Source of the DNA: a virus
Lineage: Duplodnaviria > Caudoviricetes
Reading direction: 5' to 3' (one strand)
IMG/VR virus record: IMGVR_UViG_3300032330_001252
Span: 18,432 to 82,431 of that record
DNA length: 64,000 bases
Shown: in pieces, positions 12,255 to 61,895 of the stretch
How positions within the stretch are numbered: the stretch's first letter is position 1
Layout of the letters: every line of letters begins with the position of its first letter
Program-made: the position numbers and the translations under genes
The notes under the pieces: model-generated
Database searches by the model: none
Told to the model about the DNA's origin: nothing
Seen by the model: only the letters and a program-made list of their open reading frames with translations

Positions 12255-15206
12255 ATGACACTAGATACTAGACAAATTTTACTAACAGCTACAACGTATA
12301 CTGGGCAGGTAGAAACTGCAAATATAGTAGGTAATGCACCAGCTACTAGTGAAATTGCTTCTGGTATTCCTGGTGCACTACCAGTAATAACACAATTAAA
12401 TGATGTAGCGTTAAATTTTACAGCTACCAACATGGGCGAGGAAAATATTCCAGACCCACGATTATTTAAATTTTTAAGTGATGAATTTAAATTAAACGAA
12501 CAAGCAGTCAAACAAGTTTTTAAGAACTTAAGCGACTTATCTACCACAGACGAACAAGTACGCAAATTACTACAAAAAGTTCTCCAAGACATTACAACTA
12601 CATCGGACGTATTTGACAGAGTTTGGACTGCATACAGAACTTACACAGATTCTACAACTAATACCGAGCTGTTACAAAAAGACTTCCAAAAAGTACTTTT
12701 AGACTTATCAAACAGTAGTGATTTATTACGCACAGATGTAGGCAAGTATTTAGCAGATGTAACTGCACTAGCCAACCTAAGTTACGCAGTTATCTTAGTA
12801 GGCAAAGACCTACAAGATCAAACAATTGGATTCACAGATGTTTTAACTCGAATTGTAGATTTTAACAGAACTTTTGAAGACACGGCATTTATGACCGATG
12901 ACTTTTATGGTGCTGCTAATATTGATGATGACGAGTACGCAGATGTTTATAAAGTTGTTTTAGAGTGGATACGCCCTGAAGAAACATTTTCGGTTGACAT
13001 AGATAAACCAGATGTAGAAGATCAGGCCGCACTTGGCGAACAAGCTTACTTAGAGCCACAGATTCCTAAAACGGACCAAGTTGTAAATGCAGATTTACAG
13101 TTTGCTACCATAGCGCTTAGCAAATTAGATCAAACAACAAACAGTGAGCTACAGGTATTTGATATCACAAAGCCTGATCGTGAAGATACGGCTACTACCA
13201 GCGAACAACAAGCATTTGATGTTGTCAAACCAGATTTGGTTGACCAAGCTACAAATTCAGACCTACAAACCCTGGATGTTGGTCAAACCAGCAGCGATAG
13301 TTTTACAGCTCAAACAGAAGAATACTACTTTGATGTTGATAAACCAGATATAGCAGATCAAGCAACAGCCACAGATCAAGCAGCCAAAGATTTTAGCAAA
13401 CCAGCAGATGACGATCAAGTATCGATTGCTGAGTTATTGCTAACCAAACTAATTGGTTTAAATATCAATGAGATTGACTACTTCTTAGAAGATTATGTAT
13501 TTGACATAACAGATTATACATTCAAAGCTGTTCATGCCAGAGACCAAATTACTCAAATTGTAGTAACAAAACAATTCGAAGACCTAGTAGACTCCACAGA
13601 TGACTTTTATGGCGAAGCAAACATCGATGATGATGAGTATGCTAGCATTGACAAAGTACTTGCCGATTACAGCACATTCTCAGAGAACTTTGATCGAGTA
13701 GTACAGTATATTAGGTTGTTTTACGAAACAGCCACAATGTTGGAACAAGCGGAACTAGCTGCCACAAAAGTTGTTAGTGATCAGACCAGTAATAGTGAGT
13801 TAACTAACTCAGATGTTTACAAAGTCAACAACGATCAAACCACTACATCAGAAACAAAATCATTCGATGTCGAACAAACTAGTATAGATCAAGCTACTAG
13901 TTCAGAACAAGCAACCATTGCCACAAGCACTGTATACTCAGACCAAGCAACTACCACAGATGACTTTAGCAGATTCTACCAAGCAGTTAGAGTTTTTGCA
14001 GAACTAACACAAACAACCGAACGTATTGAACAACTTGTAGAGCGTGTTAGTTCTGACCAAGCTGTGTTTACAGAATTGTTTACCAGAGCTGTTGAAAAAT
14101 TCTCAAATGACCAAGCCGCAACAAGCGAACAGCAAACATTTGACTTTTATGGTGTTTACGAGGAGCTAGTAGATGCAACTGATGACTTTTATGGTGCTGC
14201 TAACATTGACGATGATCAAATTGCAACAGTTGACAAAGTACTTGCCGACTATGCAACTAATTCGGAAACCATAACTACTGTTGCTGAATTTTACAGAACA
14301 TTCTTAGAAACTGCAATCAGCGCAGATCAGGCAACATTTGATTTTGCTAAATCGCTGTTAGACACTGTAACAACATCAGAAAGATTTCAAGTTGATTTTT
14401 CAACATCACGAACTGAAACTGCTACTATATCAGAAACAGTTCAACAAGCTTTTGAAACATCCAGAACTGAAACAGTTGCACAAATTGATTTATTCACGCA
14501 AAGCATTGAGCCGGCCAAATACGAAACGGTTGTTACAAGTGAAGCTACCGCATACGATACAAGCCTAGACAAGCGTGAAACTGCAAACACTGCGGAAACA
14601 GTCGCTCAAGATTTTTCAACGCCACGCACTGATGTGGCAAGTATCTTAGAGTTATTTACCAGTGAATGGACTGCGCTTAGAAGTTATAGTGATGGTATAG
14701 CGCAAACTGATACAGTTAGTCTAGACACTACCAAACCTGCAACTGAAACAACCACAACAAGTGATGCACAAACACTTGATGTAATCAAACGACCGCTAGA
14801 TACTACTACAACATCAGAGGTCGTTGGCAAAGATGCCACTACCGAGTTCTCAGAACTAGTAGATGCCACAGACGACTTTTACGGTGCTGCAACTGTTGGC
14901 GACGATGAGTACGCTGCAATTGACAAAGTACTTGCTGATTATGCTACCAATTCGGACGTAGTCACAACATTAACTACTTTCTTAAGATCAGTTAATGAAT
15001 CCCAAATTTTATCTGAAGTATTCGCTGCTGCAACTGACAAAGCACTTTCAGATATTACTAACAGTAGCGATACTGTGACCTTGCTTACTGCTCCAACAAA
15101 ATTGGAGTCAGTATCAACATCTCAAACAATTTCACTTACTTTACAGAGCTATTTCTCTCAGGACTATGCACAGTTAGGGTATACAGGTGAAACATATACT
15201 TATTAA
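12255..15206 (+). CDS. Large acidic tandem-repeat protein, probably virion-associated
   Basis: 983 aa, very rich in D/E/T; four DDFYG(A/E)A(N/T)(I/V)(D/G)DD(E/Q) repeats plus many ~19-aa D-x-A/T...SE units. Confidence 0.75.
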   Translation: MTLDTRQILLTATTYTGQVETANIVGNAPATSEIASGIPGALPVITQLNDVALNFTATNMGEENIPDPRLFKFLSDEFKLNEQAVKQVFKNLSDLSTTDEQVRKLLQKVLQDITTTSDVFDRVWTAYRTYTDSTTNTELLQKDFQKVLLDLSNSSDLLRTDVGKYLADVTALANLSYAVILVGKDLQDQTIGFTDVLTRIVDFNRTFEDTAFMTDDFYGAANIDDDEYADVYKVVLEWIRPEETFSVDIDKPDVEDQAALGEQAYLEPQIPKTDQVVNADLQFATIALSKLDQTTNSELQVFDITKPDREDTATTSEQQAFDVVKPDLVDQATNSDLQTLDVGQTSSDSFTAQTEEYYFDVDKPDIADQATATDQAAKDFSKPADDDQVSIAELLLTKLIGLNINEIDYFLEDYVFDITDYTFKAVHARDQITQIVVTKQFEDLVDSTDDFYGEANIDDDEYASIDKVLADYSTFSENFDRVVQYIRLFYETATMLEQAELAATKVVSDQTSNSELTNSDVYKVNNDQTTTSETKSFDVEQTSIDQATSSEQATIATSTVYSDQATTTDDFSRFYQAVRVFAELTQTTERIEQLVERVSSDQAVFTELFTRAVEKFSNDQAATSEQQTFDFYGVYEELVDATDDFYGAANIDDDQIATVDKVLADYATNSETITTVAEFYRTFLETAISADQATFDFAKSLLDTVTTSERFQVDFSTSRTETATISETVQQAFETSRTETVAQIDLFTQSIEPAKYETVVTSEATAYDTSLDKRETANTAETVAQDFSTPRTDVASILELFTSEWTALRSYSDGIAQTDTVSLDTTKPATETTTTSDAQTLDVIKRPLDTTTTSEVVGKDATTEFSELVDATDDFYGAATVGDDEYAAIDKVLADYATNSDVVTTLTTFLRSVNESQILSEVFAAATDKALSDITNSSDTVTLLTAPTKLESVSTSQTISLTLQSYFSQDYAQLGYTGETYTY

Positions 15207-58869: not shown

Positions 58870-58944
58870 TGGTGCCCTGACTAGGAATTGAACCTAGACT
58901 CAACCGATTATGAGTCGGCTGCTTTACCATTAAGCTATCAGGGC
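58870..58944 (-). tRNA. tRNA-Ile2 (CAT; lysidine type) or tRNA-Met
   Basis: GCCCTGA/TCAGGGC acceptor; CCGACTCATAATCGG anticodon arm like bacterial Ile2; encoded CCA. Confidence 0.85.
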
Positions 58945-59348
58945 TTTGTTTGACTAGCTAACTCTTTGTATCCGCGCCCTGTAGGGTGAATACCATCTGC
59001 ACTCATTTTATCTTTGGGTCGAGGCAGGACTATATCCCCATACTGTTTGGCGATTTCTTCTATAGCTGTTTGTGCTTCTGGTTTGCGTTCCCTGCCTGGG
59101 CTAATCCAAAATACTCGTTTAGCTACTACTTGACTACGAACTGTTTCTAGTTCGCGTTTAGTTTTTATACCTTTGTGATCATTAGCACCAAGACTAATAA
59201 TCACAGTATCTGCGGATAAGTCTTTTGTAATATGCTGATTAACCCAAGACCAAGAATTAATGCCACTTTTAGCAATAGCCTGACACTCTGGTCTTTGCAT
59301 ACTTACACCAACGGCAATACTATCGCCTAATATTAGACATTCTAACAT
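58938..59348 (-). CDS. SGNH/GDSL-type hydrolase
   Basis: GDSIAVG; SLGAND; DGIHP blocks. Confidence 0.8.
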   Translation of the reverse strand: MLECLILGDSIAVGVSMQRPECQAIAKSGINSWSWVNQHITKDLSADTVIISLGANDHKGIKTKRELETVRSQVVAKRVFWISPGRERKPEAQTAIEEIAKQYGDIVLPRPKDKMSADGIHPTGRGYKELASQTKP

Positions 59349-60083: not shown

Positions 60084-60158
60084 TGGAGCAGGATGTCGGG
60101 TTCGAACCGACGACATTCTCGTTGGCAACGAGACATTCTACCACTGAATTAATCCTGC
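60084..60158 (-). tRNA. tRNA-Gly (GCC)
   Basis: GCAGGAT/ATCCTGC acceptor; TCTCG-TTGCCAA-CGAGA; CCA. Confidence 0.93.
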
Positions 60159-60159
60159 G

Positions 60160-60250
60160 TGGCGGAAGACGGAGGAGTCGAACCCCATCCCATTTCTGAG
60201 AACCTAGTTTTCAAGGCTAGTCGCCGACCTGCTCAGCTGCATCATCTTCC
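60160..60250 (-). tRNA. tRNA-Ser (TGA), long variable arm, imperfect D-stem
   Basis: GGAAGAT/GTCTTCC acceptor; G discriminator; loop CTTGAAA; variable hairpin TCTCA-GAAA-TGGGA; CCA. Confidence 0.8.
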
Positions 60251-60810
60251 TGTGCTTCTTGTTCACGTTTTTTAAGTACGCGACCTAATCTTTCGACAAC
60301 TTCATCCGAAGTCATCCAAATGTCTTTGTTGTGAAGCATATCTTTAATTTCTGCTTCAGTAAGGAAGTCTTTGTAGACTTCGCTTAAAAATTTCTCTGAC
60401 CATGCTCGTTCAAACTGTAGCTGATCATACATTTCTCCACCTTTGCCAAATGTTCCTGCACTATAGTTGTGAAACATAAATAGTGAATGTGGAGTTACTT
60501 GATACTCATGTCCACTAAGAAAAATCATAGTAGCAGCACTCATACAAGCACCTTCTACGCTAGTAATAATGTGAGCATCTGACTCACCCATTACGCGTAG
60601 GAATTGTAGTGTCGTGTAAAGATCACCACCCATTGAATTGATGTAAATACAAATTACATCAGTTGCTCTAGCGTTGCGAATACAGTCAAACCATTCTACA
60701 TACTCTTGAGCATCTAAAATCTCGCCTGATAAGTAGAATTCGTGTACACTAGATGTTGATTTTGTAAATTGGTTGTTTCCGCCCAATTTAGGGTCTAAGT
60801 CTTTACTCAT
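60217..60810 (-). CDS. ClpP-like serine protease
   Basis: YLSGEI; YINSMGG; CMSAA (catalytic Ser); FMFH (His); KDIWM (Asp); CAGGAG RBS. Confidence 0.88.
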   Translation of the reverse strand: MSKDLDPKLGGNNQFTKSTSSVHEFYLSGEILDAQEYVEWFDCIRNARATDVICIYINSMGGDLYTTLQFLRVMGESDAHIITSVEGACMSAATMIFLSGHEYQVTPHSLFMFHNYSAGTFGKGGEMYDQLQFERAWSEKFLSEVYKDFLTEAEIKDMLHNKDIWMTSDEVVERLGRVLKKREQEAQEDDAAEQVGD

Positions 60811-60826
60811 AATGCTCCTGTTAATA

Positions 60827-61140
60827 CTAGCTTATTCTGTTACGAGGAAAACTAGCGAAACCCTAAGCGGCAATTAAGCTGCTAAAGCGTAAACTGAATC
60901 GTTTGCGTTTATTTTTGTTTTGCTTCTGCAACTGGGAACAACCCCAATCCTAAGGCTTCTGCGTTACCTAGTTGTCCACGCCTTTACTCTTTGCCCTGTC
61001 GAAACCAAATGCAGCCCCATCAGAAGTATACCACGCTAGAGCCCATATAGGTTTCTTTCATCTAGGACATATACTTCTGGTGGAGCTGGGCGGAGTCGAA
61101 CCGCCGTCCAGAACACTTTTCTTTTTGCTTCATACAACCA
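60827..61140 (-). ncRNA. ssrA: Circularly permuted (two-piece) tmRNA: acceptor piece ~61140-61078, intervening segment 61077-61019, coding piece 61018-~60827
   Basis: T-arm GGCGG-TTCGACT-CCGCC and CAGCTCC-A-CCA lie upstream of GGGGCTG...TGGTTTCGAC; G3:U70 pair; tag ORF GCA AAC GAT TCA GTT TAC GCT TTA GCA GCT TAA (ANDSVYALAA*) at 60906-60874. Confidence 0.92.
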
Positions 61141-61141
61141 T

Positions 61142-61150
61142 ATTATAACA
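61142..61150 (-). promoter_or_regulatory. Extended -10 promoter for the tmRNA
   Basis: TG-T-TATAAT directly upstream of the acceptor piece. Confidence 0.6.
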
Positions 61151-61252
61151 CACTACCCATGCTGGGTGCTCCCAGTTACCCGCGGAAGGTGTGCGCGCGA
61201 TTACTCCGCATATATGCATTAAGTGGCGAGTAATGTGTTATAATATAGAGTA

Positions 61253-61594: not shown

Positions 61595-61669
61595 TGGAGT
61601 AGGTGACAGGATTCGAACCTGCATTGAACGGATTTGCAATCCGACGCGTAGCCGTTCCGCCACACCTAC
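61595..61669 (-). tRNA. tRNA-Cys (GCA)
   Basis: GTAGGTG/CACCTAC acceptor; U discriminator; loop TTGCAAA; CCA. Confidence 0.92.
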
Positions 61670-61670
61670 A

Positions 61671-61895
61671 TTAAATTTTTCTACTATTAACTAAAGTACT
61701 AAAAGTATCAAACAACTGAGTAAATTTTAAATCATAAATAGACTCTAATCCTAGTAGGTAATTTGAGATTTCATCGTTGGTCATTTGACCACCTTCAATC
61801 TTGCCTTCTAGTACATTCTTATCTAATAGTTTAATATCTTCAATAATATTCCAGCAATTCATTATTTGCTGTTCTAAATCAAATCTGTCGGTCAT
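61671..61895 (-). CDS. Conserved small phage hypothetical protein
   Basis: DRFDLEQQIMNCW...LLGLESIYDLKF. Confidence 0.7.
   Translation of the reverse strand: MTDRFDLEQQIMNCWNIIEDIKLLDKNVLEGKIEGGQMTNDEISNYLLGLESIYDLKFTQLFDTFSTLVNSRKI

Follow-up and report, generated by a model that had tools for sequence, protein, structure and literature searches.

In a 64-kb stretch of viral DNA, we found a protease gene of the ClpP family that runs into the transfer RNA (tRNA) gene behind it and ends only within the anticodon stem of this tRNA-Ser(UGA). The stretch, referred to below as the window, is the final 64 kb of the 82.4-kb viral contig IMGVR_UViG_3300032330_001252 (Caudoviricetes) of the IMG/VR collection. 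Protease gene and tRNA gene share 34 nucleotides (nt) on one strand, and the last 11 codons of the protease open reading frame (ORF) as well as its stop codon come from the tRNA gene. The same kind of overlap recurs in diverged relatives, in which the stop codon may even be the anticodon of the tRNA. We consider it probable that this overlap is an inherited and tolerated result of tight gene packing, rather than a device dedicated to the control of the protease. The elements of the junction are as follows.

60217..60810, minus strand: ClpP-like serine protease ORF, 197 amino acids plus TAG (ORF list, Pfam, PHROG)
60815..60819, minus strand: Shine-Dalgarno sequence AGGAG, 4 nt 5' of the ATG at 60810 (sequence reading)
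60160..60250, minus strand: tRNA-Ser(UGA), 91 nt, 8/4 cloverleaf (direct folding of the sequence, alignment, covariance model)
60217..60250, minus strand: 34-nt overlap, in which tRNA nt 1-34 correspond to the third base of Q187 through D197 and the stop (sequence, ORF list)
60217..60219, minus strand: TAG stop, at nt 32-34 of the tRNA, on the 5' side of its anticodon stem (sequence, alignment)
60211..60213, minus strand: anticodon TGA, in frame the ClpP stop codon in relatives with a CCAG anticodon stem
60250..60251, minus strand: predicted site of cleavage by ribonuclease P (RNase P), with A(-1) (60251) on its 5' side and G1 (60250) on its 3' side (inferred from the tRNA 5' end)

The shared segment and its stop codon

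The ORF is, by its sequence, a ClpP-family protease gene. Its product matches PF00574 (ClpP / peptidase S14) over residues 47-173 with 42.5 bits against a cut-off of 20.2, and phrog_1827 ('ATP-dependent protease') with an E value of 4.6e-62. Ser91, His114 and Asp163 align with the catalytic triad of ClpP 6hwm, and this putative triad is unchanged across 39 homologues. In the AlphaFold model of the monomer, the C-terminal tail appears as a helical extension of low confidence (predicted local distance difference test score, pLDDT, 57 for the last residues).

This tail is the part encoded in the tRNA gene. An earlier, sequence-only reading of the window had placed the overlap at 60217-60250, with the TAG in the anticodon stem and the final codons, E-D-D-A-A-E-Q-V-G-D-stop, in the 5' part of tRNA-Ser; the ORF list and direct reading of the sequence bear out each of these points. 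The tRNA begins (nt 1, 60250) with the G of the Q187 codon, CAG. While the anticodon stem of the window copy reads CTAG/CTAG, other copies have CTGG/CCAG or CCAG/CTGG, and the alignment columns 34:46 hold GC in 16 and AU in 9 sequences. The TAG thus owes its existence to a compensated double change to CTAG/CTAG.

A message cut at the predicted RNase P site would end in ...GCA CA, i.e., with the Ala186 codon and two further nucleotides. From the way in which RNase P and trans-translation operate in general, we infer that maturation of tRNA-Ser would leave a ClpP message that lacks its stop codon. No terminator-like site was found between the ClpP-like ORF and tRNA-Ser, and transcripts of clpP should therefore still contain the tRNA. 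This also bears on the alternative that the tRNA is made mainly from a transcript of its own, begun inside clpP, which would leave ClpP translation and tRNA production largely uncoupled. A weak promoter-like site does lie inside the ORF (60487-60460, 9 of 12 positions), but such sites were no commoner than in shuffled sequence (15 found, 13.2 expected), and with the missing terminator in addition we give this alternative little credence.

The tRNA-Ser(UGA) gene

The tRNA folds into an 8-bp acceptor stem, a 1-nt linker, a 5-bp D stem with one A.G pair, a 4-bp anticodon stem plus a C.A pair, a 5-bp variable arm with a GAAA loop and a 4-bp T stem, followed by G73 and an encoded CCA. Homologues of this tRNA were recovered from related phage contigs, both viral and metagenomic, as 29 copies with 24 distinct sequences, which we aligned with the window copy (25 sequences). 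The cloverleaf pairing holds in 98% of the alignment cells, and ten pairs change on both sides, among them three of the five in the stem of the variable arm. All 25 sequences possess the 8:65 pair (13 AU, 12 GC, covarying) and none has the canonical 49:65 pair; the 12 base pairs of the acceptor/T branch are therefore divided 8+4, not 7+5. The anticodon loop, CUUGAAA with the anticodon UGA and U33, is invariant over the 25 copies, and the G73 of the window copy is replaced by A73 in four distant ones. A long variable arm and a G73 (or U73) discriminator are identity elements for seryl-tRNA synthetase (SerRS).

Several observations could suggest that the tRNA-like sequence is a decaying pseudogene which was captured as coding sequence, in which case nothing would compete with translation. 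ARAGORN did not call the tRNA-Ser at default or at lowered thresholds (lowering gave only a misfolded 'tRNA-???'), and Rfam offered only tRNA-Sec at this place, with 29 bits and below the gathering score. The z-score of the minimum free energy is unremarkable (-1.04). Two irregular pairs come in addition: A.G in the D stem, which corresponds to the imperfect D stem that the sequence-only reading had pointed out, and C.A at the foot of the anticodon stem. ARAGORN, however, likewise failed on all 21 homologues located downstream of ClpP in related viral-contig loci, and its blindness is explained by their 8/4 architecture. The covariance model R1, which was built without the window copy, assigns this copy 102.2 bits (E value 5e-24), and its nearest clade-mates 102.1-104.5 bits. 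The A.G pair (UGCAG/CGGCG) is found throughout the tRNA clade of the window copy and is no mark of decay in it, and the C.A pair is present in nearly all copies. Compensatory changes occur in all stems, the CCA, G73 and the variable arm are intact, and the gene is the sole tRNA-Ser that ARAGORN and R1 found in the window. A pseudogene, whose exclusion had been named as a check from the outset, is thus very improbable in view of the covariation in 25 sequences and the R1 score; a decay of the D arm in the window copy can be ruled out by the clade-wide A.G feature and the equal score. Because the score equals those of the clade-mates and the odd pairs are clade-wide or nearly so, the tRNA-Ser is, as far as its sequence can tell, an intact and conserved tRNA of the 8/4 type; its processing and charging are presumed by analogy.

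R1 also matched two unannotated stretches in records of cultured phages which standard tRNA finders overlook. The match in Pseudomonas phage PHB09 (OK040171, ~14394-14487; L095, 893-986; 101.4 bits) is a clear 8/4 tRNA-Ser(UGA), and the match in Escherichia phage SUSP2 (KT454806, ~85086-85174; L094, 876-964; 56.8 bits) is a weaker candidate.

Read-in among relatives

The ClpP-like protein has 2776 homologues with E values of at most 1e-40, and we inspected the C-terminal tails of the closest 120 clusters. In 23 of these, the ORF reads into the tRNA and ends in a tail of the form (L/M/V/Q)-EDDAAGxAGD, with or without QP or QS, or in a shorter form thereof. The tails of all read-in clusters are translations of the tRNA 5' half. 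DNA of three relatives shows the position of the stop directly: the ClpP gene ends with TAG 34 nt into the tRNA in L084 and L078 (93% and 83% nucleotide identity to the window gene), and with TGA 40 nt into the tRNA in L083 (74%), where this TGA is the tRNA's own anticodon. The TGA anticodon serves as ClpP stop in many of the read-in relatives. The tail of cluster P0005 ends at EDDAAG, which would put its stop about 22 nt into the tRNA, in the D loop, as deduced from the protein tail. The variable residue of the tails (Q/M/V/K/L) coincides with variable bases of the D loop, and it is therefore the tRNA, not the protein, that sets the tail sequence.

The combination CTAG/CTAG (60217-60220 and 60205-60208 in the window) was seen only in read-in loci, comprising three of three with DNA, L078 and L084 among them, and seven protein clusters ending in ..AGD; loci without read-in carry CTGG/CCAG or CCAG/CTGG. 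The idea that only the 91-nt allele of the tRNA has an in-frame stop nearby was rejected, as every frame of both alleles stops within 6-58 nt in most copies.

In 21 IMG/VR relatives with the tRNA, the ClpP stop invariably lies upstream of it, as a TAA 5-7 nt before the tRNA in ten of them and at a distance of 41-547 nt in the rest. These 21 were the first tRNA-bearing relatives to be compared, and by themselves they would fit an error of assembly or sequencing, or else a recent mutation private to the contig. The same junction is found, however, in independent JGI, ENA and Logan assemblies, and a private accident of the window contig is refuted by the read-in protein clusters and DNA loci, which leaves a negligible probability for this explanation. 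A recent accidental read-in, against which a comparison of homologous loci had been proposed with the initial observation, likewise does not fit an overlap that recurs in 23 of the 120 clusters as well as in three diverged loci with DNA. From these comparisons, the read-in trait appears to be old or mobile, and conserved but dispensable, the latter because many relatives keep their stop 5-7 nt upstream.

Scans of IMG/VR with an exact 36-nt pattern and a degenerate one gave nothing or chance matches, and the read-in clade is represented there only by the window's own record; one metagenome scan recovered the clade. A megablast search of cultured phages with the locus returned no close DNA match, and in the cultured T5-like phage DU_PP_V the ClpP homologue does not adjoin a tRNA. 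Among close relatives without read-in, P0002 and P0019-22 are represented by protein sequence only. Three of these clusters (P0019, P0021 and P0022) end in an identical tail, EQLAESA, after variable sequence. This tail resembles the tRNA-encoded one and may be another translated RNA gene.

Packing of reading frames and tRNAs

The overlap lies in a minus-strand tRNA cluster, which according to ARAGORN spans ~63281 to 58870 of the window. Inside this cluster, a permuted transfer-messenger RNA (tmRNA), the ClpP-like ORF, tRNA-Ser(UGA) and tRNA-Gly(GCC) follow one another in this order on the minus strand, and the next tRNAs are Gly(UCC) and then Val(UAC). The following features of the cluster are of relevance here.

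60874..61139, minus strand: permuted (two-piece) tmRNA with the tag ANDSVYALAA, directly upstream of the ClpP-like gene (Rfam RF04321, 114.5 bits, and ARAGORN)
60084..60158, minus strand: tRNA-Gly(GCC), which begins 1 nt past the CCA of tRNA-Ser (ARAGORN)
61595..61895, minus strand: ORF 61895..61671, ending in TAA, then 1 nt (U), then tRNA-Cys 61669..61595, a typical 1-nt abutment
58870..59348, minus strand: ORF 59348..58938 (136 amino acids), whose TGA is nt 5-7 of tRNA-Met(CAT) 58944..58870, a second same-strand overlap

To describe such junctions across the phage group, we counted them non-redundantly wherever an ORF of at least 60 amino acids ends near a same-strand tRNA, in the window and in the loci L002-L056, L078, L083 and L084. 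The gap measures 0-10 nt at 77 junctions, with exactly 1 nt as the commonest value, and 11-60 nt at 16; at a further 20 junctions, ORF and tRNA overlap. These junctions cover at least ten types. The 7-nt overlap of the 136-amino-acid ORF, for which no PHROG match was found, with tRNA-Met recurs in L004, L017, L027, L078 and L083. Overlaps of 10-15 nt were observed in L003, L007 and L008.

Bacterial RNase P favours a U at position -1 of the tRNA, and a U is present there at 180 of 270 tRNA junctions, although T makes up 27% of the bases. Where ClpP reads into the tRNA, -1 is the middle base of the last sense codon before the tRNA, and it is a U (in Val, Leu and Met codons) in 20 of the 23 clusters. 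This retention is indirect evidence that RNase P may still act at the ClpP/tRNA-Ser junction.

The tmRNA is not tied to the overlap. The order tmRNA, ClpP, tRNA-Ser exists also in relatives without overlap, and the permuted tmRNA is kept directly 5' of the ClpP-like gene in L002-L035, L083 and L084, with read-in or without. Permuted tmRNA and ClpP-like gene may form a phage-borne pair of trans-translation and protease. A 95-nt 'tRNA-His(atg)' called by ARAGORN at 61078-61172 is not a separate tRNA, but the tRNA-like part of the permuted tmRNA, and the identical false call was obtained in L018 and L084.

Elsewhere, the window encodes a tape measure protein, a J-like tail protein, a ribonucleotide reductase, SbcC, a match to family-A DNA polymerase and a DnaB-like helicase. 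Such a set of predicted genes is typical of a large siphovirus, and the uncultured phage is treated here as T5-like.

Origin and consequences of the overlap

The findings can be combined into the following scenario. A conserved ClpP-family protease gene and an intact 8/4 tRNA-Ser(UGA) gene, both presumably working, have 34 nt in common on the same strand of a T5-like tRNA cluster. ORFs in this cluster are packed flush on the next tRNA, with stops usually 0-8 nt upstream, and the ancestral ClpP stop, presumably a TAA 5-7 nt before the tRNA, would have been lost in one lineage. The ORF would then have run on until it met an in-frame stop within the tRNA, which is the TGA anticodon in many relatives and, in the sub-lineage of the window, the TAG that arose from the compensated stem change. 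The resulting tail of 11-13 residues would be a passenger, with a sequence dictated by the tRNA. If the cluster is transcribed as one precursor, full-length protein could be made from the unprocessed RNA, until RNase P cuts at G1, between 60251 and 60250, which would free the tRNA and leave a ClpP message without stop. The last ribosomes on this message would probably be rescued by trans-translation via the host or the phage tmRNA, and the rescued product would consist of residues 1-186 and the tmRNA tag. The sequence-only reading had gone further and considered translation of full-length ClpP and production of tRNA-Ser as mutually exclusive fates of one transcript. This is too strong, as several rounds of translation can take place on a transcript before it is processed; the outcome is better thought of as a kinetic partition than as an either/or switch.

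Such a scenario needs no dedicated function of the overlap, because the stop position drifts, close relatives do without the overlap and the gene order is the same where the stop is normal. The drift of the stop and the dispensability of the overlap in close relatives also argue, as far as sequence comparison goes, against an obligatory programmed non-stop design of the ArfA type.

The overlap could alternatively be a selected device that limits the dose of the protease or couples it to the tRNA. Maturation of tRNA-Ser would then make a non-stop mRNA on purpose, the upstream phage tmRNA would tag the truncated protease (1-186 plus AANDSVYALAA) for degradation, and the protease level would be tied to the flux of tRNA processing. 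This would agree with the persistence of read-in in 23 clusters and in 4 DNA loci with nucleotide differences of up to 26%, with its scatter over several ClpP clades, with the U retained at -1 in 20 of the 23 clusters, with a phage tmRNA of ..ALAA tag directly upstream and with the second overlap, between ORF and tRNA-Met, that is conserved in 6 loci; the same logic has, moreover, been proposed for T4 segB and for selB/selC. On the other hand, the order of tmRNA, ClpP and tRNA-Ser is equally conserved where the stop lies upstream, which makes the tmRNA link independent of the overlap, the main read-in clade includes 5 members, out of 23, in which overlap is absent, the stop drifts in position and the tail in sequence, and most junctions of the cluster only abut. 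We therefore regard a selected device as rather unlikely, although it is the explanation that competes most seriously with tolerated packing. Its widest form, in which read-in is a selected part of a phage module of trans-translation and proteolysis, the protease dose is set by tRNA-processing flux and tmRNA availability during infection, and other flush or overlapping junctions are governed likewise, is to our mind less likely still.

Some observations nevertheless weigh against tolerated packing as the explanation. Read-in persists across ClpP sequences down to ~69% identity and at several places of the tree, and such persistence could reflect selection instead of mere tolerance. About 7 of the 9 codons just 5' of the tRNA are one mutation away from a stop, and no stop has arisen there in the read-in clusters. 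The window copy itself has an A, not a U, at -1. The comparison covers 20 read-in clusters as proteins, and L078, L083 and L084 as DNA. In our ClpP tree, which stems from a quick search with support from the Shimodaira-Hasegawa-like approximate likelihood ratio test (SH-aLRT) only and is provisional, the window falls into a clade of 23 rows, 18 with read-in and 5 without, and 6 further read-in rows stand in at least 4 other clades, which forces at least 5 changes of state.

Comparison with known systems

The flush ORF ends and the U at -1 look like a tRNA punctuation of phage messages in the style of mitochondria. In animal mitochondria, excision of tRNAs sets the ends of the mRNAs, and stop codons can be shared partly or wholly with tRNAs (cited in PMC8124441). 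These stop codons are completed by polyadenylation, whereas a bacterial mRNA without stop goes to trans-translation; we know of no stop repair of the polyadenylation type in bacteria.

A search of the literature on 'tRNA punctuation' in phages, or on ORFs that overlap a tRNA, found no phage paper under these terms. The layout as such and the idea of stop loss are already known, the former from the annotation of phage T5, the latter from proposals for T4 segB and for selB/selC. The T5 RefSeq record (NC_005859) lists same-strand overlaps of 23 nt between hegD and tRNA-Gln2, 14 nt between hegC and tRNA-Ser2, 24 nt between T5.069 and tRNA-Asn and 6 nt between T5.057 and tRNA-Met. As in the window, the 3' end of the coding sequence and its stop fall within the 5' portion of the following tRNA on the same strand, in a mixed cluster of ORFs and tRNAs. 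The T5 overlaps, however, measure 6-24 nt and involve mostly HNH homing endonucleases or small ORFs of unknown function, and the T5 tRNAs include one pseudogene. In the window and its relatives, by contrast, a widely conserved ClpP-family gene is involved, and the overlap reaches 34-40 nt, into the anticodon stem or the anticodon, and is common to about two dozen diverged relatives.

For segB and tRNA-Arg of phage T4, it was proposed that tRNA maturation strips the ORF of its stop and thereby lowers its expression (Brok-Volchanskaya et al. 2008; PMC2330249). The mechanism proposed here is identical, and it is a proposal in both cases. In T4, the cut separates the last codon of a homing endonuclease from its stop, while in the window 11 sense codons would be removed as well, from a gene that does not encode a selfish nuclease. 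For selB ORFs of Proteobacteria and Nitrospirae that contain or partly overlap tRNA-Sec (selC), the same non-stop model was put forward (Mukai 2021; PMC8124441). There, too, the C-terminal extension is translated tRNA, it is 'highly conserved but not essential', and the stop precedes the tRNA in close relatives (PMC8124441). These genes differ from the phage pair in being cellular, and in that SelB binds Sec-tRNA, an evident reason for coupling; no comparable link between ClpP and tRNA-Ser is known.

The tRNA partner has its counterpart in the allo-tRNA group, of which the 8/4 type of tRNA-Ser has been described in tRNA clusters of phages (Mukai et al. 2017; PMC5389517). The window tRNA shares with this group the 8-bp acceptor and 4-bp T stems, the long variable arm, G73 and the serine anticodon. 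Allo-tRNAs of the 8/4 and 9/3 types are processed, charged and used in Escherichia coli (PMC5389517). The only overlap described in that study is between an allo-tRNA pseudogene and a transposon ORF, and no functional 8/4 tRNA-Ser overlapped by a protein gene was presented (PMC5389517).

Compared to these systems, the partners and the extent of the overlap are new: a conserved protease gene takes the place of a selfish nuclease, an 8/4 tRNA is the other partner, and the overlap, which reaches the anticodon, is the deepest of this type that we found. Overlap of genes and tRNAs in phage tRNA islands is thus not confined to genes of selfish nucleases. A conserved protease gene can draw its last 11-13 codons and its stop from a tRNA gene and keep this arrangement across diverged lineages. 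As the 8/4 tRNA-Ser is invisible to ARAGORN, annotation pipelines will report a plain ClpP gene in such phages and miss both the tRNA and the overlap. With stops 5-7 nt upstream of the tRNA, 34 and 40 nt inside it and, as one tail implies, ~22 nt inside it, the relatives form a new, well-sampled natural series on which to test the hypothesis that tRNA maturation produces a non-stop message, which T4 segB and selB/selC have in common with the junction described here.

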